A model generated the notes under the pieces. It saw only the letters and a program-made list of their open reading frames with translations, did no database searches and had not been told where the DNA came from. Positions 12,533 through 59,344 of a stretch of DNA of 64,000 nt are shown here, piece by piece; the stretch's first letter is position 1, and the number at the start of each line of letters is the position of its first letter. This stretch comes from Gammaproteobacteria bacterium. GTDB lineage: Bacteria; Pseudomonadota; Gammaproteobacteria; PS1; Pseudothioglobaceae. A program made the translations under genes and the position numbers. The stretch lies in NCBI GenBank assembly GCA_965207345.1, contig OZ242280.1, positions 760,316 through 824,315 on the forward strand, given 5' to 3'.

Positions 12533-12552
12533 TGTTTAATCAGATATAATTT

Positions 12553-12864
12553 TTAATTTTTTAATGTTGTTAGATAGATAAAAATTTTCCCAGCATGCGC
12601 TTTAACTGCATAAGTATTTAATTTTTCCACCATTTTTTCATCACTTTCACCAGTCGTTAAATTAAAACTAAAACCGTGTAAAGAACATTGAATACGCCCA
12701 TTTTTTAAACAACCCAGTGTAAGTTTAGCTTCTTCGTGCGGACATCTATTATCAGCACAAAATAATTTGCCGTCAACACATGCTAAAAAAAGCGCCAAGC
12801 CACCTAAATTAAATTCCGCCATGGTATTATTTTTTAATCGTGTTATAGGTGCTTCAATCCACAT
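12553..12864 (-). CDS. Rieske [2Fe-2S] domain protein (NirD-like small ferredoxin)
   Basis: 103 aa with the CPH...C..H ligand pattern (CPHEEAKL ... CSLHGFSF). Confidence 0.8.
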   Translation of the reverse strand: MWIEAPITRLKNNTMAEFNLGGLALFLACVDGKLFCADNRCPHEEAKLTLGCLKNGRIQCSLHGFSFNLTTGESDEKMVEKLNTYAVKAHAGKIFIYLTTLKN

Positions 12865-12937
12865 TATCTCAATTTTAAATTACCAATATTTTATGTTATT
12901 TTGTAACTTATATTTTTCGTGTTATAAATTTTTTATA

Positions 12938-13573: not shown

Positions 13574-13579
13574 TTTTAA

Positions 13580-14236
13580 CTAATAACATTTTTTACTTGT
13601 CAATAAATAACTCACTTTATGCAAAAAATTCACACCTGCCTCTAGAAATTTTGTTTCATTTGCTAAATTATTTTTACATTCAAGTTCAACAATTTTAAAG
13701 CTATGAAATAATGAATATATTTCTTTGTTATTAAGTGCAAAAGGCGGGCCTGACATTTGTCTTTGAGGATAATTAAGCACAAGCAGTAATATTTGCACAC
13801 AATCTGGCAAAATATACGTTAAATATTGTGCGTATAATGCGCGTTTTTTTTTATCTAGTGCAATCAATGATGCCCTATCATAAACGCCACGCACATCTTT
13901 TAGTATTTCTTTTTCAAGTTTGAAATAATCACCCACATAAATACGAATGCGTTCACCCATATAAATAGTAAAATTTTTGGCAGTGTATTTTTGGTAATTC
14001 AAGTTATGCTCATTAAAAAAATCACCTACAGCTTTTTCGCTTAATTCCACGCCAATTACTTGGTAGCCTTTTTTTATAAGATAAAACATATCTAAACTCT
14101 TGCCACATAGTGGCACAAAAACCGTATCATCTGGTTTTAAGTTTAAACACTTTAGAAATTTGACTAAGCGCGTATTAACGCTTGTCTTATGCCAGCCAAT
14201 TAAATTGTCTTGCCAACGTTTTTGCCAATCAGTCAT
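13580..14236 (-). CDS. tpm: Thiopurine S-methyltransferase
   Basis: 218 aa. W..RW....IGWH is followed by VFVPLCGKSLDMFYL and VIGVELSEKAV, the TPMT signature layout. Confidence 0.85.
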   Translation of the reverse strand: MTDWQKRWQDNLIGWHKTSVNTRLVKFLKCLNLKPDDTVFVPLCGKSLDMFYLIKKGYQVIGVELSEKAVGDFFNEHNLNYQKYTAKNFTIYMGERIRIYVGDYFKLEKEILKDVRGVYDRASLIALDKKKRALYAQYLTYILPDCVQILLLVLNYPQRQMSGPPFALNNKEIYSLFHSFKIVELECKNNLANETKFLEAGVNFLHKVSYLLTSKKCY

Positions 14237-14328
14237 AAACGGAAAAATAATAAAAAATGGTAAAATAAGATGAGCTATATTATAGTACTTGTGTCAAATG
14301 AGGTAAGCTTTATGTGTAAAATTTAATA

Positions 14329-14826
14329 TTGATGCTTAAAAAAAATAGAAAAATTATTCTACAACTTGTTTTTTTTATTCTAGCCATTATTTTTATTCGC
14401 TCTTGGCAACAACAAGATTTAATAGCAGGCGAGGCGCCGCATTTCATGAGTTACAATCTTGAAGGGCGGACATACACACTAAATGGTGATGAGGGTAAGG
14501 CTTCACTTGTGCACTTTTGGGCAACATGGTGTTCTATTTGTGCGTTTGAAAATGATAATATCCAAAATATTGCTAAGGATTATAAAGTATTTAATATTGC
14601 CATGCAATCTGGCAGCGACAAAGAAATTATTCGCTACGCAAAAAAAAATAGCCTGGATAGGTCCAACATTATAAATGATCAGCTTGGTACTCTAGCTAAG
14701 CATTATGGCGTCAAAGCAACACCTACAAGTTTTATCATTGATAAATATGGAAATATTGCATTTACCGAAGTGGGATATACTACTGAACTAGGACTTCGTT
14801 TACGCTTATGGTGGGCTTCACTGTGA
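14329..14826 (+). CDS. TlpA/ResA-like periplasmic thiol:disulfide oxidoreductase
   Basis: 165 aa with an N-terminal TM anchor and a thioredoxin fold carrying WATWCSIC (CxxC). Confidence 0.75.
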   Translation: MMLKKNRKIILQLVFFILAIIFIRSWQQQDLIAGEAPHFMSYNLEGRTYTLNGDEGKASLVHFWATWCSICAFENDNIQNIAKDYKVFNIAMQSGSDKEIIRYAKKNSLDRSNIINDQLGTLAKHYGVKATPTSFIIDKYGNIAFTEVGYTTELGLRLRLWWASL

Positions 14827-15500
14827 GTGCTAGACGTCCAAATATTAGTGATTGGATGAATCATTTATCCGCTGAGTTTGATAAACCCTATATGCATAGG
14901 CTTAAAAAATTCTTAATTGCAGAAAAAAAACGTGGCAAATGTATTTTTCCAGAAACAAAATATTGGTTTTTAGCACTTAAGATGACAGCACTCAGTCGTG
15001 TTAAAGTCGTAATTTTAGGACAAGACCCCTACCCAACTCCTGGCCATGCACATGGACTTAGTTTTTCTGTTCCGCGTCATATACTCGCGCCTTATTCACT
15101 TAAAAATATCTTTGATGAAATTAAATCTGATTTGGGAATAGATATGTCTTATCAAGGAGATTTAAGTGCTTGGGCAAAGCAGGGCGTTTTACTTTTAAAT
15201 AGTGTGTTAACTGTAAATTCTGGTGCCAGAGGTTCACATAAAGATCAGGGTTGGGAGATATTTACTGACAAAATTATTGATGTTATAAATGAACAAAGAA
15301 CACATATTGTTTTTTTATTGTGGGGACGTTATGCTTTAGAGAAAAAAATGCGCATTAATGCAAAAAAACATTTGATATTAACTGCTGCACACCCATCTCC
15401 ACTTTCTGCTATGCGTGGTTTTTTTGGCTGCAAACATTTTTCTAAAGCTAATATTTATTTAAAAAAACATCATTTAGGCATAATTAACTGGCAATTATGA
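14808..15500 (+). CDS. ung: Uracil-DNA glycosylase
   Basis: Has GQDPYPTPGHAHGLSFSV, LLLNSVLTV and the C-terminal HPSPLSA, all family 1 UDG motifs. The true start may be Met17 at 14856. Confidence 0.9.
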   Translation: MVGFTVSARRPNISDWMNHLSAEFDKPYMHRLKKFLIAEKKRGKCIFPETKYWFLALKMTALSRVKVVILGQDPYPTPGHAHGLSFSVPRHILAPYSLKNIFDEIKSDLGIDMSYQGDLSAWAKQGVLLLNSVLTVNSGARGSHKDQGWEIFTDKIIDVINEQRTHIVFLLWGRYALEKKMRINAKKHLILTAAHPSPLSAMRGFFGCKHFSKANIYLKKHHLGIINWQL

Positions 15501-15523
15501 AGTTGAAGATGAAAATTTAATGA

Positions 15524-16663
15524 ATGCTGTTATTTTTGATAATAATGGAAAAATCACTGACACTTGTTATTGATGACGCGGTTTATGGGTATCAACAATT
15601 ATTTTCTAAATTTGGCAAAATTATCGCACTGCCAGGAAGAAAAATTGATAAAAATTGCGTAAAAAACGCTGATATACTTATTGTGCGCTCACGCACTAAA
15701 GTAGATAAAAATTTGTTGTCAGGAAGTAAAGTTTGCTTTGTAGGTAGCGCTGTTTCTGGTTTGGATCATATTGATATAAACTATTTAAAACACGCTCATA
15801 TCTGTTTTTTTTCAGCACAAGCTGCTAATGCAAATGCTGTAGCAGAATATGTTATCAGTGCTTTGGTTAATTTGGAGGCAGATTTCCAATTTAGATTAAG
15901 CGATAAATCTTTGGCTATTATAGGAGTTGGTAATGTGGGTGCGCACCTTTATACTAAAGTAAAAATGCTTGGTATCAAAATTTATTTACATGATCCGCCC
16001 AAACTAGAAAAAGAAAACTTAATAATGCAAAAAAAAATGGTGCATTTTTCTAAAGATAATCTCATCCAAGAAAGTTTTAGCAAAGAATGCTTTACCAAAG
16101 CAGAATTTGTTGATTTAAAAACTGCATTAACGGCTGATATAATTAGCATGCACACGCCACTTACCAAAATGGGGAAATACCCTAGTTTTCATTTATTGGG
16201 CGCACATAATTTTCATCATATTAACAAAAATACTATTCTTATTAATACTGCTAGAGGAGGCGTGATTGATGAGAGTGTTTGGCAAAAAACGCCAACACTT
16301 GCAAATGTAATTGATTGTTGGGAAAATGAGCCGCACATTAATCAAATACTCAGAAAGAATGCCTACCTAGCAACGCCACACATTGCTGGACACTCTGTTG
16401 ACGCAAAATTTACAGCTAGCTCTATGGTATATAAAGCATTATGTCGGTTTATGGGCGAGGTACCTAGTGAAAATTTAAAAAACCCTATTGAGACAGTGAG
16501 TATAAACATAAAAAACGTAACTACACTAAAAAATACGCTAAATAAAATTTATGATTTTAAACAAGATAGTCCTGCTCTATTAAGTGCAAAGGCGTTTGAG
16601 AATTATCGTCGCCATTATCCTAAGCGTTATGAATGGAAGCATTTTAAACATTTCAAACAGTGA
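15524..16663 (+). CDS. pdxB: Erythronate-4-phosphate dehydrogenase
   Basis: 379 aa D-2-hydroxyacid dehydrogenase with PdxB-type N-terminus ([28 protein letters not shown]), a GVGNVG NAD loop and the PdxB-specific C-terminal dimerisation domain. The start may be Met8 at 15545. Confidence 0.85.
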
Positions 16664-16682
16664 AAAAATTATTTCAGTATTT

Positions 16683-18071
16683 TTAGTATTTACATCTCCA
16701 AGTGGTGTTAGCCTGTGTATCTTCTAAAATAATGTTATGTGCAGCTAATTCATCCCGTATTGCATCGGATAGAATAAAGTTTTTACATTTTCTTGCCTGA
16801 TTGCGTTCCATTATTTTTTGATTAATTTGTTCATCTGATAGTTTGATCCCACGTTTAAAAAAATCTTTTTCATGTTGTAAAATTCCTAAATAGCCACCAA
16901 GTTTTCTAAGTAACTCAGCAAGTGATCTTGCTTGGTCTAAATCGTATAACCTAACTTGATTGAGTTTTTTTAATAAATCAAATAATATTGAAAGCGCAAC
17001 AGGGGTATTAAAATCATCATCCAAGGCGGCAATAAAATTATTTTTAAAATCATAACGTATCACTACTTCTGCCATGGCTGTGCTATCAATAAATAAGTCA
17101 CGAATACCTAGATAAAGACGTCTTAGTGTATTTTCAGCAATTATTAAATTTTCTTCGCTGTAATTAAGTGGGCTACGATAATGGCTACTGATGATAAAGT
17201 AACGCAGAGTCTCACCGCTATATTTTTTTAAAAGATTACGAATTGTTACAAAATTGCCAATCGATTTGCTCATTTTTTTCTGCTTTATATTGACAAAACC
17301 AAGGTGCATCCAATAATTTGCAAATTGCGTCTCGTGCGCACTTTGTGATTGTGCAATTTCGTTTTCATGATGCGGAAAAATTAAATCCATCCCACCGCCA
17401 TGTATATCAAAATGATGTCCTAAATAACGCATTGACATTGCTGAACATTCAATATGCCAGCCCGGACGACCTGGCCCCCAACTCGTTCTCCAACTTGGTT
17501 CATGCTCTTTAGATGCTTTCCATAATACAAAATCAAGTACATCTTTTTTATATTCATTTACATCAACACGTGCGCCAATTTTTAATTCATCCAAATTTTT
17601 AGCTGATAATTTACCATAAGACGAAAAGGCACGTGTAGAAAAATAAATATCACCATTCATTGCCTGATAGGCTAATTTTTTATCCATAAGTTTTTGGATT
17701 AAGTACAGCATATCATCAATATGATCAGTTGCTCTTGGCTCAATATCAGGTGACAAGACATCCAGTGCTCTCTCATCTTCGTGCATCGCCGAGGTAAAAC
17801 GCGCTGTCAACGTAGCAATATCCTCTTGATTTTTAATTGCTTGTTTAATGATTTTATCGTCAATATCAGTGATATTACGTACATAACAAACTTTAGTAAA
17901 ATGGCGTCTTAGATGGCGGGCAATAATATCAAACATTACCAATACGCGTGCATGACCAATGTGGCAATAATCATAAACTGTCATACCGCAAACATAAATG
18001 CCAATGCGATTTTCATCAATTGGCACAAATTCTTGTTTGTTACGAGTAAGTGTATTAAAAATTTTAAGCAT
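16683..18071 (-). CDS. cysS: Cysteine--tRNA ligase
   Basis: 462 aa class I aaRS with HIGH (CHIGHAR) and KMSKS motifs and the CysRS zinc-site context (WHIECS). Confidence 0.95.
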   Translation of the reverse strand: MLKIFNTLTRNKQEFVPIDENRIGIYVCGMTVYDYCHIGHARVLVMFDIIARHLRRHFTKVCYVRNITDIDDKIIKQAIKNQEDIATLTARFTSAMHEDERALDVLSPDIEPRATDHIDDMLYLIQKLMDKKLAYQAMNGDIYFSTRAFSSYGKLSAKNLDELKIGARVDVNEYKKDVLDFVLWKASKEHEPSWRTSWGPGRPGWHIECSAMSMRYLGHHFDIHGGGMDLIFPHHENEIAQSQSAHETQFANYWMHLGFVNIKQKKMSKSIGNFVTIRNLLKKYSGETLRYFIISSHYRSPLNYSEENLIIAENTLRRLYLGIRDLFIDSTAMAEVVIRYDFKNNFIAALDDDFNTPVALSILFDLLKKLNQVRLYDLDQARSLAELLRKLGGYLGILQHEKDFFKRGIKLSDEQINQKIMERNQARKCKNFILSDAIRDELAAHNIILEDTQANTTWRCKY

Positions 18072-18315
18072 AAGCTCAAATTATTTTTGTATTAGGTACT
18101 ACATTTATAATTTTTTACACAGGCAAATTACTGTAAAAAAATCTGTCTTTACTTAAAAGTATGTAATAAATAAAAAATGCATACTAATTTTTTGAGTCAA
18201 CCTCTCAATCTAAATAAATTAACAAAACACAGGTTATCTTAAAAAACACTTTGTAAAACTAAAAATTTCTAAGGCATAACTTTCATTGTTTCTTTATTAA
18301 ATAAAGACACAACCT

Positions 18316-18457
18316 ATGAGTATTTTAGTTATAAAAGGCACCAAGTTAAGTGTCTGGATTAGCCTATGGTGAAATCATTAATAATTTTACTTCATCTAAT
18401 CTAAAAGAAAAGAAAATTGTTTTATTTTTCTATCCGTTAGATTTTACTTTTGTTTGA
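18316..18457 (+). pseudogene. Remnant of a peroxiredoxin (AhpC/Tsa-type) N-terminus
   Basis: ATG at 18316, then after a frame change the reading ...GEIINNFTSSNLKEKKIVLFFYPLDFTFV stops (TGA 18455-18457) exactly where the conserved FTFVCPTE peroxidatic Cys motif should follow. Confidence 0.5.
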
Positions 18458-18522
18458 ACAATATTTTTTATAACTTTAGAGTAAAATAACTTCACGCATT
18501 TTTAATTGATGAGGAAAAAATA

Positions 18523-18687
18523 ATGAAAAAATGGCAGTGTACAGTATGTGATTGGGTTTATGACGAAGAAAAAGGTGCACCTGATGAGGGCATTACTCCA
18601 GGAACAAAATGGGAGCATGTTCCTGATGATTGGGTATGTCCAGATTGCGGTGCAACCAAAGATGAATTTGATATGGTGGAAATTTAG
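18523..18687 (+). CDS. Rubredoxin
   Basis: 54 aa, below the ORF-track cutoff. [54 protein letters not shown] has both CxxC pairs (CTVC, CPDC) and the conserved W/Y/F core. GAGGAAAAAATA precedes the ATG. Confidence 0.9.
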
Positions 18688-19778
18688 TGGTAAGTATTTT
18701 AATTTTGCCGGGTGATGGTATCGGTGTTGAAATCAGCGCTCAAGCAGAAAAGGTTTTATTATGTTTAAATGAATATTTTGGGTTAAATGCTGATTTAAAT
18801 TTTGCCTTAATTGGCGGTAGTGCCTATGATAAAACAGGTAGTCCTTTACCTGATAAAACACTGAAACTTGCGCGTGATTCTAATGCAATTCTACTAGGTG
18901 CAGTCGGTGGTTATCAGTGGGAGAAACTACCAAGAGAAGTACGTCCTGAACGTGGCCTACTCAGCATTCGTTCTGAACTAAATTTATTTGCAAATTTAAG
19001 ACCTGCGTTTTTATATCCACAACTAGCAGACACATCAACCTTAAAATTTGAGATAGTATCGGGTTTAGATATAATGATTGTACGGGAGCTTATTGGCGGT
19101 ATTTATTTTGGTAAACCACGTGGTGTGCGCAGAGAAAATGGTGAACGTTTGGGCTTTAATTCTGCAACTTATTTAGAGTCTGAAATTGAGCGTATTGCTC
19201 ATAGTGCATTTCAAATTGCACAGAAACGAAACAAACATCTTTGCTCAGTTGATAAAGCAAATGTACTTGAAGTATGTGAATTATGGCGCGAAGTGGTTAG
19301 TAATACAGCAGAGGCATATCCTGATGTTGTGCTCTCTCATTTGTATATAGATAATGCTACGATGCAATTAGTGAAAAATCCCAAGCAATTTGATGTTATT
19401 TTAACTAGTAATTTATTTGGCGATGTACTTTCAGATCTCGCTGCAATGCTTACAGGATCTATCGGCATGCTGCCTTCAGCATCACTTAATGAATATGGTT
19501 TTGGACTTTATGAACCCGTCCACGGCTCAGCACCGCATATGGCAGGAAAAAACACAGCAAATCCATTAGCAATAATTTTATCCATTGCGATGATGCTTCG
19601 TTATTCTTTAAATAAGCCATTATTAGCAGAATTAGTAGAAAAAGCAATATATCAAACTCTAGATTCCAATTATCGCACAGCTGATATTGCGAGTGCATGT
19701 GATAAAATTATTACTACTTCAGAGATGGGTGATGCGGTTGTTTCATCACTTATGCAACTTAAAGAGCGGTCTATTTAA
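18687..19778 (+). CDS. leuB: 3-isopropylmalate dehydrogenase
   Basis: 363 aa with [21 protein letters not shown] and the [31 protein letters not shown] signature. The GTG start overlaps the rubredoxin TAG by 1 nt. Confidence 0.9.
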
Positions 19779-20852
19779 ATTTTATCAAATACCAAAGCGG
19801 TTACTTTTTACGATGAAAGATGTTAATTCAAGCTTTACTTGCCCTTATACATACCTTATTCAAAGCACCCGTTGTGCTTGCCATTATGCTAGCTGTTACT
19901 GCATTGCAGAGAAAGAATGGACAAGTTGTGTAAATAAAAATGCAAGCTGTGACTGCATAAATTTATATCAAAATTTACGTATAAACTCAAAATTTATTTT
20001 GCACAGTCATAACCAAAAAGAATTATCTATTGGACAACAAAATAAAGTTAAAATGGGCGGGTTGTTAGCATTACAAAATTTAATATCTGGTGTAAGAAAT
20101 GTGCGTGTCGCTGATATCAATCTTCTAGTCAGCGCAGTCAAAAAACGCTATGGCAATTTTGAGAAATTACCTTTTTTAAAAATAATACCGACCATTAGTG
20201 CATTTAAATTTAGAAAAAACAAACGTTAATTAAAGGAGGTAAAAATAGGCATAGTTGAACTAAGACAAAAGGTTATGATTAAGAAACATGGCAGAATATA
20301 TCAGCAGTTAATTGACGCTATTACCTCTTTGGAGGATTTGAAGGTTATTAGCGACTAGGAAATTATCTCTACCAAAGAAAAAGCGGTTAGATTAGACAAA
20401 GAATGTAGGGAAGTGGAAAGTAATGTTGGACCCACTTTACCTGAAAAGGCATCAGCATGGTTTGATTCTAGTAATGCTATGGACCTCGCAAGGAAGTTAG
20501 CAACATGACAGTTATATGATTTGCAAGGCATTGGCAACGATACAAGACATTAAGGACAGTTACGATGATAGTTGGCATAAGAATGCATAAACTATTTTCA
20601 CGGGGATCAAGAGACCATTTTAGGCATAAAAGAAACCTCAGAAAACTTACTTAAATGAAATTACTTAACGCAGACCACGAATTAGGCGAATGCACAGAAT
20701 AAGTTTTACACCACGAGACTGCAACAGACCCTGCTGAGTATTATCCACTGTGTGATACTTGTGCTGATTATTGTAATTAGTTAAGAGAAGAATGAAATTT
20801 TGTGTAGCACTGTTTTTTAATCTAAGTGATAATGCTATAGTTCATGGTTAGT

Positions 20853-21539
20853 TTAAAGTTTGCTTTCAATGAAATTTTTTACCGACGCAATATCAATTGC
20901 TTTTTTGCTTGTGATGTGGTGGTAAGTAAGAGATTTTAATAATGTCACTAACGAGTGTAAATTACGACTGTAATAGGTTAGTAGATAATCATAAATATCA
21001 TCTTCAATATGCAAATTTTGCATCGTCATTTTTTGTTTTAAAATTTCTTTTTTTTGTGTATAATTCAAATGTTCTAAACGAAAAACTAATGATAGGCTTA
21101 GTCTTGTTTTTAAATCAGTAAGTGATAAATTAAGCATATTTGGTATAGTGTCACCGCTTATAATTAAATTAAGTAAGCCGGATTTTTCAAGGCGATAAAG
21201 CATAAATAAACTATACTGTATTTTGTGAGAAGCAAGGTGAATATTATCAATAATGATTAAGTGATACTCAGAAAAATAAGTTATTGGTATTTTATTTATT
21301 TTATCTGTCTCACAGTCAAAATATATTGCCTTTAAAAAATTTGCACATGCCTCATAATAACAAGCTTTTAATAAATGCGTTCGCCCTGAACTAAATGTGC
21401 CTGATATATAAATATTTTGTCTGTTATATTGCTTTATTAGGTCGTACAAACTTATAATAATTTGCTGGTTTTTTGCACCAATAAAATTATAAAAATACAT
21501 GGTTTTTTGAAATTTAAAGGGGAAAATAAGTTGTTGCAT
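20853..21539 (-). CDS. hda: DnaA regulatory inactivator Hda
   Basis: 228 aa DnaA-domain-III-like AAA+ protein. It has the N-terminal QL.F.F clamp-binding-like motif (MQQLIFPF), a degenerate Walker A GTFSSGRTHLLKA and Walker B IIIDNIH. Confidence 0.8.
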   Translation of the reverse strand: MQQLIFPFKFQKTMYFYNFIGAKNQQIIISLYDLIKQYNRQNIYISGTFSSGRTHLLKACYYEACANFLKAIYFDCETDKINKIPITYFSEYHLIIIDNIHLASHKIQYSLFMLYRLEKSGLLNLIISGDTIPNMLNLSLTDLKTRLSLSLVFRLEHLNYTQKKEILKQKMTMQNLHIEDDIYDYLLTYYSRNLHSLVTLLKSLTYHHITSKKAIDIASVKNFIESKL

Positions 21540-21565
21540 TCTAACTCTAAAGAAATGTATAATTT

Positions 21566-22126
21566 TTAAAATTGGTGCTTATTTAATAACACACGCTTAA
21601 TCCAAAGCCAAGCATAATCCATCCCGCTTAACGTAGTGCTCGTTGCAACAACAATATAAAGTGCACTTAGGTAATAATTAAGGTTAGGATAAAGTTGTGC
21701 TAACAAGGTGGCAAGAATGGCAGAAATTTGCAAAATAGTATTAACTTTGCTGAGATTAGATGGTGAAAGTAATTCTTTTTTATGTGTAGCGCTTTCATAA
21801 TAGTAACCGACCATTGCTGCAATAATCATTACGTCTCTTAAAACAATGAGTAGGATTAGCCAAATTGGCACTAACATTAGCCAAAATAATATTAAAAAAC
21901 TGCTGATCAGTAATATTTTATCTGCCAAAGGATCAATAATTGAACCAAAACGAGATTGGTAGCCAAAACGTTTTGCAATCCACCCATCTAAGCCGTCACT
22001 AATGCCGGCGATAAAAAATACAAATAATGTGAGTAAATAATGCTCACCAAAAAGTAAAATCACAATGGGAATAACAAGAATAATACGTAAAATACTCAGT
22101 GCATTTGGTATTTGAGAAAGTTTCAT
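21566..22126 (-). CDS. pgsA: CDP-diacylglycerol--glycerol-3-phosphate 3-phosphatidyltransferase
   Basis: 186 aa with the CDP-alcohol phosphatidyltransferase motif DGLDGWIAKRFGYQSRFGSIIDPLADK and multiple TM helices. Confidence 0.85.
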   Translation of the reverse strand: MKLSQIPNALSILRIILVIPIVILLFGEHYLLTLFVFFIAGISDGLDGWIAKRFGYQSRFGSIIDPLADKILLISSFLILFWLMLVPIWLILLIVLRDVMIIAAMVGYYYESATHKKELLSPSNLSKVNTILQISAILATLLAQLYPNLNYYLSALYIVVATSTTLSGMDYAWLWIKRVLLNKHQF

Positions 22127-50925: not shown

Positions 50926-51018
50926 GGAGAGATGGCCGAGAGGCTGAAGGCGCTCCCCTGCTAAGGGAGTATGGGGTTTGTAGCTCCATCGAGGGTTCGA
51001 ATCCCTCTCTCTCCGCCA
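50926..51018 (+). tRNA. tRNA-Ser (anticodon GCT), 93 nt, CCA encoded
   Basis: GGAGAGATGGCCGAGAGGCTGAAGGCGCTCCCCTGCTAAGGGAGTATGGGGTTTGTAGCTCCATCGAGGGTTCGAATCCCTCTCTCTCCGCCA. The acceptor is GGAGAGA/TCTCTCC, the anticodon stem is CTCCC/GGGAG with loop CTGCTAA, and there is a long variable arm. Confidence 0.9.
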
Positions 51019-51109
51019 TAAGCGTTTAGTAATTGTAGGATAAAAAATTCTACCTTCAATAATTCCATTAAACCCAGGACTACTCTATGGATAAGCATAG
51101 AGTACCAAT
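51018..51109. repeat. Left arm of a 92-bp inverted repeat (partner 58052-58143), starting at the last base of tRNA-Ser
   Basis: ATAAGCGTTTAGTAATTGTAGGATAAAAAATTCTACCTTCAATAATTCCATTAAACCCAGGACTACTCTATGGATAAGCATAGAGTACCAAT matches the reverse complement of 58052-58143 with 4 mismatches. Confidence 0.9.
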
Positions 51110-51425
51110 ACCTGCAAATAATCCACTTGATGAGGATTTAAACATCCAAGTAAACCACTGCCATATGTCAGATTGTGATAATTATGGTATTGTCGTAAAA
51201 GTAGAACCTATTAGATCAGGTCCAAGTAAAGATGGTGATAAACAATATAAAATAACCTCTACTAGTAAAGAATGTATCCTTGCTATTTTATGTGAATATT
51301 GCACTGAGAAAGCACCTGTTAAATCTAATGAAGGTATTGCTAGTGAGATAAATAGATTAAGTGATTATTTTAAAGGTTCAGAAGATAAATGTTGTACTAA
51401 TAAAAACTGTGAAAATCACAACTAG
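51087..51425 (+). CDS. Cys-rich hypothetical protein (possible zinc-ribbon N-terminus of a lost larger gene)
   Basis: 112 aa with Cys/His clusters HCHMSDCDNYG, CEYC and CCTNKNCENH. Its first 7 codons lie inside the inverted repeat. Another frame stays open for about 94 codons after the stop (51423-51705), which suggests a frameshifted longer gene. Confidence 0.3.
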   Translation: MDKHRVPIPANNPLDEDLNIQVNHCHMSDCDNYGIVVKVEPIRSGPSKDGDKQYKITSTSKECILAILCEYCTEKAPVKSNEGIASEINRLSDYFKGSEDKCCTNKNCENHN

Positions 51426-51817
51426 CTCACTATTTAGAAAGTTTAATCAAGCTGACAGCAACACAACACTACACAAAAGCACATCTTTACAATAAGACTG
51501 ACATAATAAATACAGACTATCAGCTTGTTTGTTTGCTTGCGAAATCTGACAGTATTGAAAAATCTTTAGAAAGAAATGAACTTTATTACAGAAAAGAATC
51601 CTTAATTTATTGCATAAACACAGGATTAAGCCAAGAATTAAATTTTGATTTAAGTTTCAGACAAATCAAAGTGGAATTGGCTAGGATTTATAATGACCTT
51701 TAAAGCCGAAAATCTTAGTTTTATTTTGTGTATAATCATAAGGTTTCCAGTAAGTATAACGTTTGGTAACCCTCCGCCATATTGCATATTTTTTTTGATA
51801 GAAGAGTTGGAGAAGAT

Positions 51818-52081
51818 ATGAAACTTGTAATGTGTATGACAGTATTATCTATAGTACTATTAACAGGATGCGTTCCAGTAGTAAAAAGTGATAGAATCAT
51901 AACATCCTCTGGAAAAATTGGACATGCTATTGATTGTAAACATGCATATGATATGGGACAGTGTTATAAAAGAGCGGGTGAAACTTGTATAAAAGGATAT
52001 ATAATCTTACAAGAAACAAATATACCAGGTGGTTTTTTTGATATTCCAAGACAAAATTTGGTAATTGAGTGTAAAGAATAA
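51818..52081 (+). CDS. Small lipoprotein
   Basis: 87 aa starting from the ATG at 51818, preceded by GGAGAAG. It has a signal peptide with lipobox LLTGC. The track ORF (51782) has a 12-codon upstream extension. Confidence 0.5.
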   Translation: MKLVMCMTVLSIVLLTGCVPVVKSDRIITSSGKIGHAIDCKHAYDMGQCYKRAGETCIKGYIILQETNIPGGFFDIPRQNLVIECKE

Positions 52082-52842
52082 TAGAATTATTCAAAAAAAT
52101 TATTACAGCTGACTGCTAACGCAGATCTGTAATTGATGTAAAGGCTAGTTTTCCTATTTATTATGATAAGAGTTATGCCTGTGGACTAAGTGTTATCTGT
52201 TCTGGTTAAAAAACCTTGTGTTGTTATTCCTTATTGGTTTAAGTGAGTTTTTTTAAAAAATAGATATTTTGTATCAAGTTAACCAGAATCTCATTGACCA
52301 ATTGCACTGCGCCTGAATTGAAAAGTATAGGTGAGTAGGTCAAATCTTGAGTAATAGTTTTTTGTATGTAGAATCATGTCCTAACTAATCATTTAAGTTC
52401 CTTACTAAACAAGCCGAGTTCTAACTGCGTACAATGAGTTTATTGACTACTTTAATACAGGCTTTGGCTTATTCGCTTGTTTCAACTAACTCCTCTTGTT
52501 CTGTCTCTTTTACAAGAATAACTTTTTTGTAACATTTTCATATTCTGAAATAAAATTACTGGCAATATGAGCTAGGAGTGAGTTTTGCATTTGGAAATAG
52601 AACAACTGTTATACACTCTTAAAAGGCGTATAAACAGTAATTATATAGCATTAATTTTTTTAGTAAATAAAAATAATAATTTAATATACATCTTTTATAA
52701 AAATAAACACACATTATGAAATTATTAAATTAAATTCGCTCCAAATGTTTTTTAAAGCATTATTAGTACGAGTACTGAAAAAAGTTATGTCGATTGGGCT
52801 AAGTAGTATATGTTATTTCATGATAAAAACATCCTTACGTTT

Positions 52843-53181
52843 TTAGACTGGTTCCCATTTAGATATATCAACAGCACTGACTGCAAAGGTGAAATTAGGT
52901 ACTATATTATCTGTGCGAAGATGTTTTATCTTTTGGTATTCTTCGGAGTTCCAAAAGTTTTTAAGATGCTCTATTGTTGGGAATTTAAATAACGTAAATT
53001 TAGCATTCTCTTCCCACTCCCCTTCAAAGAGTTCTAGAAGCTGATCACTTTCACCAGCAATTAATAGCTCCCCTTTGAACTTCTCAAGTATTGGATGCGC
53101 CGCTTCACCATAAGGAATGATTGAGCCATGATCTTCTGGCATGAATGAGCTACAAACCAAATATGCTTCTAAATTTTTCAA
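52843..53181 (-). CDS. DUF1330 family protein
   Basis: 112 aa. The pattern ...YGEAAHPILEKFKGELLIAG...EGEWEENAKFTLFKFPTIEHLKNFWNSEEYQKIKHLR fits the DUF1330 consensus (Y...kyGG..l..g...EG.w.....vi.eFps.e.a..wy.S.eYq....R). Confidence 0.6.
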   Translation of the reverse strand: MKNLEAYLVCSSFMPEDHGSIIPYGEAAHPILEKFKGELLIAGESDQLLELFEGEWEENAKFTLFKFPTIEHLKNFWNSEEYQKIKHLRTDNIVPNFTFAVSAVDISKWEPV

Positions 53182-53314
53182 ATATAGTTAATCGCCTTGA
53201 TCAAGTGGTTTTGAAACATAACGCTGAACTGAACCAGCCATACCTGCCACAAAGCGACGGATATGGGTTGGTCTCCAGTAAATTGTTCTGTATTTCTACA
53301 TCAGGTTAATTAAA

Positions 53315-53524
53315 TCATTTAATTGGAACAACTTTATTTGCACAGGGGCCTTTTTGACCTTGGCCAACTTCATATTCTACTGCCTGTCCATCATTTAGCG
53401 TTGCAAAACCGCCCCCACTTTTAATTTCCGAATGATGAACAAAAAGATCTTTTCCTCCATCCTCGGGTGTAATAAAACCAAAGCCTTTATCGGCGTTGAA
53501 CCACTTAACTGTACCTTTATTCAT
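53315..53524 (-). CDS. Cold-shock protein (CspA family), copy 1
   Basis: 69 aa from the ATG at 53524. [34 protein letters not shown] carries the RNP1 (KGFGFI) and RNP2 (VFVHH-like) motifs. The track ORF has a 16-codon spurious extension. Confidence 0.9.
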
Positions 53525-54191
53525 GTCGTTTTCTCTAGTGTTTTGATGAAAAATTATATATTCCCGACCCAATTCATCGGTTGGATGTCGAAATTGTGAT
53601 ATTCTCAGTTTTTTGTATTAGGTATCATTATCAATAGATATATCCTGAGCTCTCATTAATGGAGGCTATTCAGCGTGAGTTTTCCCAGAATTTGAGTCCA
53701 TTCTTTTTAGGCGTTTTTCTTCCTTTTTGCAAGCTCTCTTTACCGTTTTTTAAATGTGTAATTAGATTTTACCATTAAAAGTCTCTTATTTTAATTTAAA
53801 AATGTTGATCTTGGAGTAAAACATATACCTCTAACTTAAGCATCTTGTCATAAAGTATTGTATGTTACCTAATAATCCTGAAAACAATTCATAATTTTAT
53901 GTAATAAATTTCAGTATTCTTAATAGTGGATAATTCTCTGACATTGCACTACTATGCATGCTTGTTTTACCAATTGTTTTAATTATCTCAGTTAAAAACT
54001 CTGAGACTGTTATGACAGTGCCACCAGCAAGAATTGGATAATTTACATTACTGCCGCCAAAACTTAACAGACATATTTATTTGATTTCTGATGGTATTTC
54101 TAGCCCAGAAAAAATACCCGGGATATATTTTCGACCCGCTCTAAATTTCTTTTCAAAGTGAGCTTCACGCTTTTCTTAACTACTGGCATCA
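53325..54191. repeat. 0.87-kb direct repeat, copy 1 (partner 55342-56218)
   Basis: Aligned by eye along the whole length with scattered substitutions and small indels. The offset is about 2017-2027 bp. Confidence 0.9.
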
Positions 54192-54380
54192 TGGATTGGT
54201 TCAATATGGACCAGATGCTTTGTTTCAGGATGAAACGCTATAATACCTAGCTCACACTCATAACCACCTTTGGGGAGCTTCCAACCATAATATTACGACA
54301 GATGAAGTAACCTTGATATTCATAGCACTCAGCTACTAGTTGTTCGAGATAATTACTTACTATGAGTTACCTTTGGCTTA
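54077..54380 (-). pseudogene. Degraded ORF of a conserved hypothetical family (family not securely identified)
   Basis: The minus strand reads ...NYLEQLVAECYEYQGYFICRNIMVG, then a frameshift, then KLPKGGYECELGIIAFHPETKHLVHIEPIHDASS, then TAA, then EKREAHFEKKFRAGRKYIPGIFSGLEIPSEIK. There is no start codon. It spans the boundary of repeat copy 1. Confidence 0.3.
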
Positions 54381-55334
54381 TAGCGCTCAAATAAGCGACG
54401 CGCTTTAGGTAGGATCTACGATGTCACTATTAATGAAGCTAGTTATTGCACTCAAATTGATTCCAATAGATACTCATTGTTTAATAAGACTGTTTTTCAG
54501 TTCATTTAGCTTGAGTCTTTTGATCTTCAAGTTGGTGTTACAATATAGCTATTTTGGAGTTATGGCACTTCTTGCGCTTCCATCTCTCATACAAATGCTG
54601 GAAAAGGACTCTAATTTAGTGTTGCAATTGCTGCTATTAATAATAGATTAGTAATCATTTATTCGTATGGTACTGAGCTTTAACTTGCTATATAACGCCG
54701 GAATATCACCCAACATATTTGCATACTTGGTCTCATCAATGATAGCTTGAGCGAGCATGATTCCTACGTGGGCAATACTTGAACAGATCGTGAATAATAT
54801 AAAGCTTAGATTAGCCATGGAGTCTTTTGCAGCACGAACTAATAATACTCCCAATGTAATGTAAATCCCATAATCATCTGCTCATATTCTGGTTGTGCTG
54901 GCAATCAGCTCCATTCTGAGAGCTAAATTAACATCATCTATTTTTCAGACACCTTCCATGAAGTCGTAAACTTTTATATTGGCATCTCTGTATTTTTCCC
55001 ATCCCGAAAGATTACTCTTGCCAAGTAATGCATACTCTTCTTTGGTGACAATATAGCCAATCATGTTGGAAAATACCTCTTCCACTGACTCTCTTCTGAG
55101 CAACCTATCAATTAACTCCTGATGCAGGTACTTAAGTAATTCACGCATATGAGAAAAGGGTACAAATCAAGTTCCAGGAGGGTTTTCTCATGGCCTTTTT
55201 CGCGCTACTTAGGCGTGTATCCCTGTGTCTTTATGAGCTTTATATGTTAGTAGTGTTGTTTACAACACCTAACGCTAAACTCAGCGAGCGGGCAGAATGC
55301 CCCTCCTCTGAGTTCTCTGGTTATGTGTTATAAC

Positions 55335-55541
55335 TTAAAGAGGAACAACTTTATTTGCACAGGGGCCTTTTTGACCTTGGCCAACTTCATATTCTACTGC
55401 CTGTCCATCATTTAGCATTGCTCGCCCGCCCTCACTTTTAATTTCCGAATGATGAACAAAAAGATCTTTTCCTCCATCCTCGGGTGTAATAAAACCAAAG
55501 CCTTTATCGGCGTTGAACCACTTAACTGTACCTTTATTCAT
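55335..55541 (-). CDS. Cold-shock protein (CspA family), copy 2
   Basis: 68 aa from the ATG at 55541. It is identical to copy 1 apart from a few residues ([11 protein letters not shown] vs [11 protein letters not shown]) and the C-terminus. Confidence 0.9.
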
Positions 55542-56218
55542 GTCGTCTTCTCTAGTGTTTTGATGAAAAATTATATATTCCCGACCCAATTCATCGGTTG
55601 GATGTCGAAATTGCGATATTCTCAGTTTTTTGTATTAGGTATCATTATCAATAGATATATCCTGGCTCTCATTAATGGAGGTTATTCAGCGTCAGTTTTC
55701 CCAGAATTTGGGTCCATTTTTTTTAGGCGTTTCTCTTCCTTTTTCTTCTTTTTCGCAAGCTCTTTTTGCCGTTTTTTAAATGTGTAATTAGGTTTTACCA
55801 TTAAAAGTCTCTTATTTTAATTTAAAAATGTTGATCTTGGAGTAAAACACATATCTCTAGCTTAAGCATCTTGTTACAAGGTATTGTATGTTACCTAATA
55901 ATTCTGAAAACAATTCATAATTTTATGTAATAAATTTCAGCATTCTTAATAGTGGATAATGTCTCTGACATTGCACTACTATGCATGCTTGTTTTACCAA
56001 TTGTTTTAATTATCTCAGTTAAAAACTCTGAGACTGTTATGACAGTGCCACCAGCAAGAATTGGATAGTTTACATTACTGCCTCCAAAACTCAACAGACA
56101 TATTTATTTGATTTCTGATGGTATTTCTAGCCCAGAAAAAATACCCGGGATATATTTTCGACCCGCTCTAAATTTCTTTTCAAAGTGAGCTTCACGCTTT
56201 TCTTAACTACTGGCATCA
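55342..56218. repeat. 0.87-kb direct repeat, copy 2
   Basis: Partner of 53325-54191. Confidence 0.9.
55682..55801 (-). CDS. 39-aa highly basic small protein upstream of csp copy 2
   Basis: Own translation gives MVKPNYTFKKRQKELAKKKKKEEKRLKKMDPNSGKTDAE. The homologous stretch in copy 1 (53775 downward) has CAA changed to TAA at codon 12 plus a 9-nt deletion. Confidence 0.35.
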   Translation of the reverse strand: MVKPNYTFKKRQKELAKKKKKEEKRLKKMDPNSGKTDAE

Positions 56219-56596
56219 CTGTAATCTCAAAGAGATTTTTCATCAACAAAAACACATATTTAAATATATCTATGAAGTAATTTCCTTAGAGGAGAGATAT
56301 GGTATTTAATTTAAATAATTCTTCTCTTTTACGCAGTAAGTAATTAAGCTTCTCTTAACAGCTTAAGATATTAAAATTTAGGAACGTGAAATTTTGTTTA
56401 TATTTTCTGCCTGATTTAGGCTGTGTGAATATATAATTAAACTTAATAAAATATTGTTAAATCAATAATAATTATGATATTTATACGAATAAGTAATTTG
56501 CAGTAGGTTAGGCTGTCTATTAATAGTTGCATCCTGCCCTCTACAAATCAGAGTGCAACAAGGTAAGTATATTTATCAGTAAATGGAGTATTATCT

Positions 56597-57274
56597 ATGA
56601 TAAAAGTTTATGGCGTTTACGGAACAGGGGGGTTTGGTAGAGAGGTTATACCACTATTAGAGGATCAACTAGGGCTAGCTCAGGGATTAGTAACTAATAT
56701 ATATTTTATTGATGATTTCAAACAAGGGAAAATTATAAATGGTTATCCAGTTATTAGTTTTGACTCATTTTTAAATCTTAGAGCAGACGAGCGTTGTGCG
56801 ACTATTGCCATTGCAAAAAGCAAGGTTCGTGAAAAACTAACAAATCAATGTTTAAATTCAGGTATCAAACTGTTGAATATCTGTGCAAAAAACGTGACAA
56901 AATTAAGTGGGGTAGATATTGAATATGCAAGTATTCTCTGCCCTTTTGTTACAATTACTGCTAATGTAAAAATTGGAAAATCATTTCAAGCTAATATTTA
57001 TAGCTACGTTGCTCATGATTGCATTATTGGGGATTATGTTACTTTTGCTCCTGCGGTAAAATGTAATGGCAATGTCATTATTGGAGATCATGCATATATC
57101 GGAACAGGGGCAATTATAAAACAAGGAAAAGAAGGAAAACCTTTAAAAATAGGTAAAGGAGCGATGATTTCTGCTGGATCATTTGTAACAAAAAATGTTT
57201 CTGATAGTGTGACTATGTTTGGGAATCCCGCTATAGAGTTGACAAAAGAAAACTTGAGAAAAAGAAATGGATAG
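56597..57274 (+). CDS. Hexapeptide-repeat sugar O/N-acyltransferase (NeuD/PglD family)
   Basis: 225 aa with an N-terminal Rossmann-like GVYGTGGFGREV and a C-terminal left-handed beta-helix repeats (IGDYVTFAPAVKCNGNVIIGDHAYIGTGAII). Confidence 0.75.
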   Translation: MIKVYGVYGTGGFGREVIPLLEDQLGLAQGLVTNIYFIDDFKQGKIINGYPVISFDSFLNLRADERCATIAIAKSKVREKLTNQCLNSGIKLLNICAKNVTKLSGVDIEYASILCPFVTITANVKIGKSFQANIYSYVAHDCIIGDYVTFAPAVKCNGNVIIGDHAYIGTGAIIKQGKEGKPLKIGKGAMISAGSFVTKNVSDSVTMFGNPAIELTKENLRKRNG

Positions 57275-57695
57275 TAAACAAATATTTGATTGTTTTTCTA
57301 TTGAAGAACTATCTATTGGTATGAAAGCTTCATACTCGCAAACTATTACTGATGCTGATGTTAAGGCCTTTTCAGGAATTTCTGGTGATAATAACCCTGT
57401 TCACATGAGCGAAGAGTATGCTGAAAATAGCAGATTTAAAAAAAGAATAGCTCATGGATTAATGTCCGCCTCTTATTTTTCAGCACTTTTTGGCACAAAA
57501 ATCCCAGGCCCTGGATGTGTATATGTTTCACAGCTACTAAAGTTTAAAAAGCCTGTATATCTAAATGACACTGTTACGGCTACAGTAACTGTTACAAGAA
57601 TTGATATAGAGAAAAGGCGAGTTTTCTTTAAGACTATATGCAAAGTAAAAAAAAGAACTGTGATTGATGGAGAAGCTGAAATTTATATACCATAA
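57267..57695 (+). CDS. MaoC-like (R)-specific enoyl-CoA hydratase / hot-dog fold dehydratase
   Basis: 142 aa with FSGISGDNNPVHMSEEYAENSRFKKRIAHGLM, the MaoC hydratase motif. It overlaps the upstream acyltransferase by 8 nt. Confidence 0.8.
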   Translation: MDSKQIFDCFSIEELSIGMKASYSQTITDADVKAFSGISGDNNPVHMSEEYAENSRFKKRIAHGLMSASYFSALFGTKIPGPGCVYVSQLLKFKKPVYLNDTVTATVTVTRIDIEKRRVFFKTICKVKKRTVIDGEAEIYIP

Positions 57696-57700
57696 GAGGC

Positions 57701-57742
57701 CCTTACACAACTCATCACTTTTCACCTCAATTCCTGTTTTTG
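57701..57742. repeat. 42-bp copy of dispersed repeat (partner 7622-7664)
   Basis: CCTTACACAACTCATCACTTTTCACCTCAATTCCTGTTTTTG, starting 6 nt after the MaoC stop. Confidence 0.8.
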
Positions 57743-57905
57743 ATTTTTCTTAAAGTATTCCCAAAAAATTCTATATTCTCCTGAACCTGCTTGTTTATTT
57801 CACTTCTTCACATTATTTCTTATCCCTTCTAGGTATTTTGAATACAATAACCCTTATGTTGTTGCATTTGTTTAAAAATCATCATACCTGTTTTAAAATT
57901 ATGAC

Positions 57906-58059
57906 TAATGACGTTTTCTAGGGCGTATGGCAACTACATTGACTTTCTTCATCAGTGTTGCGGTTTGATAAATTTAATCATAGCGTTGGCATTATCATTG
58001 ATTAATTTTCTCTGATTTGATAGCAATAACTGCTACGAGGAAGTTTGAGTAATTGGTAC
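57906..58059. repeat. 154-bp direct repeat, copy A (partner 58750-58903): fragment of IS3-family orfB
   Basis: About 97% identical to 58750-58903 (4 mismatches seen). On the minus strand it encodes ...QLLKLPRSSYYYQ..., a degraded IS3 OrfB N-terminus. It is joined to the inverted-repeat arm through the shared pentamer CCAAT. Confidence 0.85.
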
Positions 58060-58143
58060 TCTATGCTTATTCATAGAGTAGTCCTGGGTTTAATGGGATT
58101 ATTGAAGGTAGAATTTATTATCCTACAATTATTAAACGCTTAT
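58052..58143. repeat. Right arm of the 92-bp inverted repeat, abutting the ssrA 3' end
   Basis: Reverse complement of 51018-51109 (4 mismatches). It is separated from the tmRNA discriminator base by CTCTCC, which copies the last six acceptor-stem bases of tRNA-Ser. Confidence 0.9.
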
Positions 58144-58149
58144 GGAGAG

Positions 58150-58492
58150 TGGAGATGGGGGGAGTCGAACCCCCGTCCGCAAACCTTCAACTAAAAAATA
58201 CTACATGTTTAGTATAGTCTATTAAATTTAACAACACATCACCCGACTAACAGGGATATGGATGCGATTCCAGTTAAAATTTAACCGCCATATCCTGAAA
58301 AATACGACAGCGAGTCTGCTTATTGACCGCCGACTTAAAAGCACAGACAACCTCCAAGAGGCGGTTAGCATTAAGCTGCTAAAGCGTAGTTGTCTTCTGC
58401 AACTATTGATTTAAGAAGTTTTTACGAGCTATCCTAATCCTCGACATGCTCTTTTAGCATCCAACTTTGTGTCGAAACCAAAAGTCATCCCC
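58150..58492 (-). ncRNA. ssrA: tmRNA (SsrA), about 343 nt, CCA not encoded
   Basis: The minus strand has 5' GGGGATGACTTTTGGTTTCGAC...GCTCGTAAAAA... with resume codon and tag ORF GCA GAA GAC AAC TAC GCT TTA GCA GCT TAA (tag AEDNYALAA). The 3' end is GGACGGGGGTTCGACTCCCCCCATCTCCA. The acceptor GGGGATG/CATCTCC includes the G3:U pair. Confidence 0.92.
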
Positions 58493-58501
58493 GGTGGGGA
58501 T

Positions 58502-58530
58502 ATTCTAGCATATATCCCTTTATAGAGCAA
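58502..58530 (-). promoter_or_regulatory. Candidate sigma70 promoter of ssrA
   Basis: On the minus strand, TTGCTC (58530-58525), a 17-nt spacer, TAGAAT (58507-58502), then 9 nt to the first G of tmRNA. Confidence 0.4.
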
Positions 58531-59045
58531 GGCTTGTATACCTTGATCAGAGTGAAGCATAAGTCGGTTAGTATTGGGTTGCTAATTGCCTTGATATCAA
58601 ATCCAACACACTGGCTAAATAACTCCAACCCTGATAAGTTTTAATGTAAGTAATATCACCTGCCCAATGAGTACTTATTGATTGCTGTTCAAATTCTCAA
58701 TTTAACAGGTTTTCTGCTTTTTATGCATTAGTTTTCAGCATTAGGGTAATAATGACGTTTTATAGGGCGTATGGCAACTACATTGACTTTCTTCATCAGT
58801 GTTGCGGTTTGATAAATTTAATCATAGCGTTGGTATTATCATTGATTAATTTTCTCTGATTTGATAGTAATAACTGCTACGAGGAAGTTTGAGTAATTGG
58901 CACAATTCTCTAGTGCTGTATTGTTTGTGAGCCCTGTTCATTTTAGTAATCATGTTGGCAATGGATTGTTCTGAACAAACAAAGCTGTTGCCTTTTTTAG
59001 GATGTCATTATCTTTTTGCGAACGCCATAGTTATTTTTAAGTGAT
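58531..59045 (-). mobile_element. IS3-family insertion sequence remnant (degraded orfA end, A6G frameshift window, orfB N-terminal half)
   Basis: The minus strand reads ...DNDILKKATALF (orfA end containing the A AAA AAG slippery motif). The -1 frame reads ...YSTRELCQLLKLPRSSYYYQ, followed by [39 protein letters not shown] (first DDE Asp region) and LHSDQGIQ (second Asp), with several stops and frameshifts in between. It is truncated just upstream of the ssrA promoter. Confidence 0.7.
58750..58903. repeat. 154-bp direct repeat, copy B (inside the IS3 remnant)
   Basis: Partner of 57906-58059. Confidence 0.85.
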
Positions 59046-59344
59046 TGAATCTCTTGTTATTCAAGGGTCATGGCTTTGCATGATTTTGGCGTTTGTCCAT
59101 TTATCTCTGCTAGGTAACTTTTTCTTAAAACAAAAGACAAAATACCTTAGTAATTATGCCTTTTCCTGTTAAGAAAAAGTGCGGTATCTTTTTGGATTTA
59201 TGCAACAAATTAATTTTTTAGTAGCTATACGCTTTATTAAAAAGTACATTTAAAATATACACTAAAATATTAAAATTAAATTGTAGCGATAAAATGCAAA
59301 TTATTTAGCAAAAATATGTTTTTAAAACAATACTCAAAGAAATA

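Follow-up and report, generated by a model that had tools for sequence, protein, structure and literature searches.

Relics of an apparent tRNA-end transposon family behind tRNA-Ser(gct) and ssrA in a Pseudothioglobaceae genome

The window analyzed here is a stretch of 64,000 nt (positions 760,316 to 824,315 of contig OZ242280.1, assembly GCA_965207345.1) from a gammaproteobacterium of the family Pseudothioglobaceae whose genome, G000, is a single contig of 1,486,647 bp. Within the window, two stable-RNA genes predicted by ARAGORN converge 7 kb apart: tRNA-Ser(gct) on the plus strand (50926-51018; 3′ end ...CTCTCTCTCCGCCA) and ssrA, the transfer-messenger RNA (tmRNA) gene, on the minus strand (58150-58492, with the ARAGORN end at 58149). 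The tmRNA carries the tag AEDNYALAA, and its acceptor 3′ strand, CATCTCC plus the discriminator A, is no longer followed by an encoded CCA. Both genes run at their 3′ ends into the arms of an inverted repeat, the subject of this report, whose features resemble the remains of two transposons.

A sequence-only reading of the window had described the arms as one 92-bp sequence in opposite orientations, each copy starting at the 3′ end of its RNA gene and containing the start of an open reading frame (ORF), and all three points were borne out. The arms (51018-51109 and 58052-58143) are reverse complements with exactly four mismatches, at arm positions 12, 27, 47, and 73, the ssrA-side arm being 96% identical to the tRNA-Ser-side arm; a repeat search of the window returned the pair as 51003-51109 and 58052-58158 (107 nt, 91% identity). 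The first base of the plus-strand arm is the A of the tRNA-Ser(gct) CCA, and each arm holds an ATG followed by codons for DKHRVP or NKHRVP. The proposal that the arms are substrates for homologous inversion of the segment between them stood up less well: RecA needs a minimal length of homology, and because the longest perfect run shared by the arms is only 25 nt, inversion between them should be rare.

On the tRNA-Ser side, where tRNA-Ser(gct) is the target of the left relic, a terminal inverted repeat (51019-51040, plus strand; TAAGCGTTTAGTAATTGTAGGA) begins directly after CCA and fits the family end consensus given below. It is followed on the same strand by the relic of a gene for what we term an "A"-type transposase (51087-51425), of which 112 codons, corresponding to family residues 3-117 and a cysteine-rich zinc-finger N-terminus, are left and the remainder is lost. 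On the ssrA side, the junction reads ...CATCTCC-A-CTCTCCA and then TAAGCG on the minus strand. The CTCTCCA (58143-58149) replaces the CCA of relatives with a readable end, adding four bases, and leads into the arm proper (58052-58142), composed of inverted repeat, leader, and first codons. The transposase gene stub here (58051-58074, minus strand; MNKHRVPI) has 8 codons, the last of which joins an internally deleted relic of an IS3-family insertion sequence (IS; 57692-58059, minus strand), with the microhomology GT(A/G)CCAAT at the junction. In this IS relic, a 154-nt orfB′ piece (57906-58059) is joined to an IS right end (~57692-57916), and the arm measures 92 bp because the ssrA copy was joined to IS3 orfB debris at that point.

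Relics at RNA-gene ends and their protein family

Searched genome-wide, the 92-mer is a dispersed sequence, yet each copy lies at the end of an RNA gene, so the suspicion that it is a common repeat unrelated to RNA genes fails. A third copy (87% identity) directly follows tRNA-Asp(gtc), where the same reading frame continues, and a fourth, more decayed copy (~74% identity) follows tRNA-Ser(gga). A fifth relic, behind tRNA-Ser(tga), has a variant end (TACCCGATGGGAAGTTT), and family residues 131-382 survive in it. All five share the strand of their tRNA or tmRNA gene, and at three of the five sites (Ser-gct, Asp-gtc, and Ser-tga) the relic is flush with CCA. Among the 37 tRNA and tmRNA genes of G000, exactly four tRNA genes end in CTCCGCCA, and these four (Ser-gct, Asp-gtc, Ser-tga, and Ser-gga) are the occupied ones, compared to 0 of the other 32 tRNA genes. 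By our own estimate, the chance of placing five relics in this way is ~(111/2.97e6)^5, or ~1e-22. A 34-codon transposase piece (family residues 352-385) also lies at genome positions 1340214-1340315, 7.6 kb downstream of tRNA-Ser(gga); beside it, ~97 nt are 85% identical, in reverse orientation, to window positions 52686-52783.

The leader between the terminal repeat and the gene is predicted to form two hairpins. The first (51035-51053, plus strand; GTAGGAT-AAAAA-ATTCTAC) is predicted in all three G000 copies, and locus L102 of a relative has a hairpin of other sequence at its position. The second (51080-51103, plus strand; TACTCTATG-GATAAG-CATAGAGTA) would sequester the start codon; it is the same in the ssrA, Asp, and Ser(gga) copies, and an identical start-codon hairpin occurs in L102. 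Complete leaders fold with z scores of -3.1 to -3.8.

The 112-codon ORF at 51087-51425 matched nothing in Pfam or NCBIfam. Searching the whole genomes of relatives, we reached a 568-aa open frame in genome G036 and, from there, >300 unnamed close homologues of ~625 aa. The window ORF is 38-45% identical to four of them (P0002, P0029, P0047, and P0120) and matches the family hidden Markov model (HMM) with 102 bits (E = 8e-29). A profile search of 1.84 billion representative proteins returned 1,834 protein clusters (50% identity) at E ≤ 0.001 and 447 at E ≤ 1e-30. Closer homologues were reached with a pseudo-protein assembled from the two largest G000 relics; the closest intact ones are P0121 (72% identity), P0122 (55%), P0123 (49%), and P0124 and P0125 (43% each).

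An AlphaFold2 model built from 67 sequences (mean predicted local distance difference test score 85, predicted template modeling [TM] score 0.89) found its best PDB matches, with a probability of 0.99, in the transposases of ISCth4 (IS256-family) and Tn5; Mu, NurA, and TnsB came next. The TM-scores of these matches were 0.25-0.36, which is low, as expected of a multi-domain protein. D231 (strand 1) and D395 (after strand 4), in P0002 numbering, are invariant in both A sub-lineages, in the distant "B" paralogue described below, and in a Gram-positive homologue. The model thus suggests that A is a ~625- to 650-aa protein with N-terminal zinc fingers and a predicted ribonuclease H (RNase H)/DDE-like catalytic core. 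The A proteins matched neither IS1 or IS1595 models nor any other transposase model of Pfam and NCBIfam, and 50 of the 67 members gave a sub-threshold C-terminal match to DUF6399.

The Gram-positive homologue is a 650-aa "insertion element protein" encoded beside dfrG on Staphylococcus/Enterococcus plasmids (locus L111, NZ_CP116910.1, 3812-5764). It is 24% identical to P0123 over 90% of the latter's length, and tblastn with P0123 found homologues of this plasmid protein in 130 plasmid records, of which Enterococcus accounts for 90. Against the NCBIfam "IS1 family transposase" model, the plasmid protein scored below threshold (E = 1e-6, 28.6 bits, cut-off 100), and it was also sub-threshold against "IS1/IS1595 N-terminal zinc-binding domain." The link of the A family to the IS1 superfamily that these matches suggest is transitive and weak.

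Ends, duplications, and cargo in relatives

In all five contigs looked up, the genes for P0121 to P0125 start 58-79 nt past the 3′ end of a tRNA-Ser on their own strand, although at one of these loci (L113) this is only a 3′ fragment of the tRNA gene; the P0123 gene is from G049, whose source belongs to the same family as that of G000. The ends of elements were found only once the tRNA-end motif had been recognized: a generic repeat search for terminal inverted repeats around intact genes gave nothing useful at six loci, Rfam found no RNA genes beside A genes in 11 loci, and ARAGORN placed no tRNA gene within 6 kb of 13 of 14 A loci. For the complete elements of G041, G042, and G043, the reason that no tRNA gene is near A is that these elements are long and A occupies their far end. 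With the motif in hand, we observed the end consensus TA..CGTT....AATTT..GG behind tRNA-Ser genes or behind copied tRNA-Ser 3′ ends in genomes G036, G041, G042, and G043 and at loci L102, L103, L104, L112, and L113. In all of these but L113, the terminal repeat is flush with the tRNA CCA, and in L102 the end begins with the same TAAGCG... as the window arms. At L113 (9900-10001), the element stands behind a degenerate tRNA-Ser 3′ fragment (…GGGTTAGAATCCCACTCTCTCTCTCA); a tRNA fragment thus appears to be sufficient as a target. This element lies inside a tyrosine-integrase island at a tRNA-Gly/Cys/Leu cluster.

Several relatives hold complete elements. In G041, TAGCCGTTCATAATTTTTGGAC stands flush behind tRNA-Ser(gct), and the gene for a distant paralogue, B (a 648-aa frame), comes next. 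The A gene lies ~15.6 kb further on and reads back towards the tRNA gene; before its end, TAGCCGTTTGTAATTTTTGGAC, stands TGGCGGAGAGC, which reverse-complements the last 11 bases of the tRNA. Beyond this element of ~19.8 kb come a 425-bp mini-element and then a third end (a B-end stub), forming a tandem array in which each unit is separated by GCTCTCCGCCA. The mini-element (L050, G041:284000-303999, positions 1549-2024) resembles a miniature inverted-repeat transposable element, in that a B-type end is fused to an A-type end with GCTCTCCGCCA on both sides. G043 has a complete element of 16,297 bp with the duplication TTCTCCGCCA, and G042 has one of 32,951 bp with the duplication GCTCTCCGCCA; the layout is the same in G036, at tRNA-Ser(gga), and G044 shows the same junction structure with a different core, GGGGCGCGCCA. 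A and B are true paralogues (hhalign probability 98.7%). Judged by sequence, the family is a transposon that has inverted ends of ~20 bp, duplicates 10-11 bp of the tRNA end, and carries variable cargo along with one or two transposase paralogues that read inward; its complete distant members measure 16-33 kb.

Two of the five loci with the closest homologues, L103 and L104, come from different genomes and carry the same A gene together with ~10 kb of defense cargo at 85-98% DNA identity behind different tRNA-Ser genes, which is direct evidence of mobility with cargo. The cargo encodes a PLD nuclease, an HATPase, a helicase, and a PAPS reductase/BrxC-PglY/DUF4007 set, with an extra GmrSD in L104. 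The sharing looks like recent horizontal transfer. The shared element occupies 10057-21944, and both genomes were assembled from one sample (ERZ25071281). Repeats of the end of the A gene, over its last ~111-123 nt, were seen at two loci. In G041, positions 3263-3373 of L029 recur at 4601-4711, 1.2 kb downstream (98%), and in G049 the repeat (L105, 13992-14114) follows a cargo block of ~11.5 kb (78% at the protein level). These repeats hint at the 3′ end of the A gene as the entry point of cargo. In metagenome contigs, we found neither the arm, searched as a 29-mer pattern, nor close relatives of the 112-aa stub.

The ssrA end and the segment between the relics

We scanned the ssrA loci of 29 relatives and could read the 3′ end in 10 of them. 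All 10 read ...CATCTCCA followed by CCA and then by unrelated flanks. Because none of these genes carries the arm, the arm at the G000 ssrA is an insertion and not a conserved feature of ssrA. An empty ssrA site would read CATCTCCACCA. In the same 10 relatives, the native end, TCTCCACCA, differs from the target at one of nine positions, making it near-cognate. None of the window's neighbor genes occurs within 10 kb of ssrA in 14 complete relatives, so the empty-site comparison is limited to the ssrA 3′ end itself.

The CTCTCC before the ssrA-side arm had been taken for a copy of the tRNA-Ser acceptor end. The sequence is there and resembles the tRNA-Ser end CTCTCC(GC)CA, but the GC of CTCTCCGCCA is missing. 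Speculatively, the four extra bases could be tRNA-Ser flank that was carried along; equally speculatively, they could be a partial second target copy left after an earlier excision, with one CCA of CCACCA lost afterwards. Neither ssrA nor tRNA-Ser(gga) now encodes CCA. By their ARAGORN ends, four tRNA genes of G000 apparently have no encoded CCA (Arg-acg at 619937, Lys-ctt at 906516, Thr-ggt at 968037, and Ser-gga at 1332545), so the genome must depend on a CCA-adding enzyme. Two cca/pcnB-type nucleotidyltransferases and smpB are present, and the RNAs of ssrA and tRNA-Ser(gga) can therefore probably still mature. On the transposon reading, the element hits removed the encoded CCA of these two genes and made both RNAs dependent on CCA addition.

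Between the relics lies a gene-poor accessory segment of ~6.3 kb (51426-57691). It encodes a small lipoprotein-like ORF, a DUF1330 protein, two copies of cspA, both within a 0.87-kb direct duplication, a PglD-like acetyltransferase, and a MaoC dehydratase. A search of 40 family relatives found neither the PglD-like nor the MaoC gene, save for two weak paralogue matches to the former. Part of the 7-kb segment is thus accessory DNA, possibly old cargo of the elements.

A second IS3-family relic lies upstream of ssrA (58500-59000, minus strand) and includes an orfA end, an orfB N-terminus with a second copy of the 154-nt repeat (58750-58903), the DITYI region, and an rve fragment at 58583-58672. 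We had considered the repeat (57906-58059 = 58750-58903) as the decayed C-terminus of the arm ORF, on account of an RPRKR-like motif, and rejected this, as both copies run into IS3-family orfB; a third copy, at genome position 34 kb, has the same orfB continuation. Window positions 57692-57916 belong to a dispersed repeat of ~210-237 nt with a sharp outer boundary (GAGGCCCTTACACAACTCATCAC...), which is probably the right end of an IS3-family element. Further copies lie at genome positions 560656, 595262, 603099, 674010, and 879971, together with shorter ones, and one copy also truncates the transposase relic behind tRNA-Ser(tga). At 59108-59206, the window has a short dispersed repeat of ~95 nt with at least five other genome copies at 84-95% identity.

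Origin of the arms and comparison with known systems

We consider it likely, with a probability of about 80%, that both arms are the left ends of dead copies of a site-specific, DDE-type family of tRNA-end transposons that inserted independently and then decayed. Because tRNA-Ser(gct) and ssrA converge 7 kb apart, two such left ends form an inverted repeat. From the homology, the positions of the relics, and the ends and duplications seen in relatives, we infer the catalysis, the reading of the target, and the order of events as follows. The transposase would bind the terminal inverted repeats of ~22 bp and recognize the last ~10 bases of tRNA-Ser-type genes, (T/A)CTCCGCCA. The element end would be joined directly after CCA, and staggered cuts would duplicate 10-11 bp of the tRNA end, which would leave the tRNA intact and place a fresh copy of the target at the far end; the tandem arrays of relatives would follow from such fresh copies. 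Elements of at least two sub-lineages would have reached ssrA as well as all four tRNA genes that end in CTCCGCCA. Both elements in the window would then have decayed, the tRNA-Ser copy keeping 112 codons and the ssrA copy only 8, since IS3-family debris became joined there. The start-codon hairpin in the leader probably blocks translation of transcripts that read through from the RNA gene.

This account retains much of one option offered by the sequence-only reading, namely, two copies of one mobile-element family at RNA ends sharing (T/A)CTCC(G/A)CCA, decayed and with accessory DNA between them. The machinery proposed there did not hold: the arms are not the att ends of integrase islands, the arm ORF is the N-terminus of a putative transposase, and the complete relatives have inverted ends and a 10- to 11-bp duplication. 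More tentatively, and at somewhat less than even odds, the family may consist in essence of one ~650-aa zinc-finger transposase that, with no integrase, Tn7-type machinery, or guide RNA, reads (T/A)CTCCRCCA, inserts kilobases of cargo flush with CCA, and regenerates its target; it would have saturated its cognate tRNA genes in G000 and hit ssrA as well, and the extra CTCT would be an excision footprint.

Several observations weigh against a simple tRNA-end transposon. The ssrA junction has four additional bases and the Ser(gga) junction an additional C, neither of which a clean insertion predicts. Complete distant members have their B end at the tRNA gene; in the G000 lineage and its closest relatives, it is the A end that abuts this gene. 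Elements of the G000 lineage thus either lie the other way round or have no B, and the lineage may be A-only: tblastn with the B protein of G041 found nothing in G000, nor within 40 kb in G049, and upstream of a distant paralogue that lies 42 kb downstream in G049 there is neither a recognizable end nor a tRNA copy. Nor was a right end found for the intact elements in which A stands next to the tRNA gene, within 10-40 kb (L103, L104, L112, L113, and 40 kb of G049). A far end, a target duplication, and a B relic were likewise not found in G000, the distal inverted repeat and the copy of the tRNA end or CTCTCCGCCA having been searched for in both the window and the genome. As none of the three survives, the borders of the elements cannot be drawn in the window; since the relics are truncated, the missing distal repeat and duplicate show decay and not non-membership. 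Finally, the putative catalytic role depends on structural matches whose TM-scores are low, and the position of the third catalytic carboxylate is ambiguous.

The other option raised earlier was a single insertion at tRNA-Ser, with the ssrA copy arising by rearrangement, inversion, or aberrant transposition that carried a CTCTCC flank along. We regard this as unlikely, though it deserves some weight. It would account for the greater identity between the arms (96%, vs. 87% with the Asp copy) and for the CTCTCCA at 58143-58149, which resembles the tRNA-Ser end where relatives have plain CCA. However, the carried piece would lack the GC of CTCTCCGCCA, and an inversion from arm to arm would leave the outer flanks unchanged. 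Independent insertion flush with an RNA 3′ end is moreover usual for the family (five sites here and ten in other genomes), and only one of nine positions separates the native ssrA end TCTCCACCA from the target.

We give very little credence to the idea that the arms are att-site ends of tyrosine-integrase islands at tRNA-Ser and ssrA whose integrases were lost. The 3′ ends of tRNA and tmRNA genes are the classical attB sites, and short copies of the RNA 3′ end do stand at the element borders in relatives. The arm ORF, however, has homology to a protein whose predicted fold is like that of DDE transposases, and the complete relatives, which end in terminal inverted repeats and duplicate only 10-11 bp, contain no integrase and have none next to them, so the att cores of integrase islands were not borne out. 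No PF00589 recombinase occurs among the window ORFs, and the only two tyrosine recombinases (PF00589) of G000, at 1,017,407 and 1,076,586, are far from all five relics. Less credible still is a host function for the 92-mer, for instance as a terminator, processing signal, or small-protein gene. Its two conserved hairpins (z of about -3 to -3.8) and its place directly after stable-RNA genes would suit such a role, but no terminator-like site was predicted in either arm (the promoter and terminator scan rose nowhere above the shuffled expectation) and the 10 readable ssrA genes of relatives do without it. In addition, the Ser(gct) and Asp copies continue into a recognizable transposase frame, and the copies differ in length through unrelated truncations. 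The transposon reading, by comparison, explains the five odd regions downstream of tRNA and tmRNA genes in G000 together.

Full-text literature searches (tRNA-targeting DDE transposons, DUF6399, and tRNA-Ser/target duplication) turned up no description of the family, which does not prove it unpublished; it is apparently undescribed and widespread, with 1,834 clusters and homologues beside resistance genes on Gram-positive plasmids. Some integrase-less "islands at tRNA genes" would then be transposons, which affects how genomic islands are called.

Parts of this picture recur in known systems. Tyrosine-integrase islands and prophages likewise target tRNA-Ser and ssrA, are flanked by a copy of the RNA 3′ end, and preserve the RNA gene; unlike them, the A family has no integrase, has terminal inverted repeats, and makes a duplication of 10-11 bp instead of a longer att core. 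Tn7 and Tn7-like elements (attTn7 at glmS, the tRNA-homing type V-K CRISPR-associated transposons, and Tn6022/TnsF) resemble it in their oriented insertion downstream of an intact essential gene, their large defense or accessory cargo, and their tandem accumulation at one site. In contrast to these, no TnsA/B/C/D, TniQ, or Cas genes occur in the gene lists of the elements examined, including the Pfam annotations of L103, L104, L112, and L113. Members have only one or two paralogous zinc-finger transposases, whose predicted fold matches TnsB much more weakly than Tn5 and ISCth4, and no neighbor genes are conserved across 11 A loci.

The IS1/IS1595 superfamily, including the cargo-carrying "transporter IS," shares an N-terminal zinc ribbon, the RNase H-type core predicted for A, short inverted repeats, target duplication, and, in some members, passengers. 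It differs in that the A family targets a specific tRNA end and has two paralogous transposases in some members; the A proteins match no IS1 model, and their Staphylococcus homologue stays below the cut-off. The A protein is also ~3 times as long as InsAB′ of IS1, and the IS1 duplication is 8-9 bp, compared to 10-11 bp here. By behavior only, and with no homology claimed, the nearest analogue is the Dada superfamily of eukaryotic DNA transposons, described as strictly specific for multicopy small-RNA genes (Kojima & Jurka 2013, PMC3706591). If the family works as proposed, it would provide a compact, protein-only means of placing large cargo at a defined, harmless address, the end of a tRNA-Ser gene, and would be distinct from integrases, Tn7, and CRISPR-guided transposons alike.

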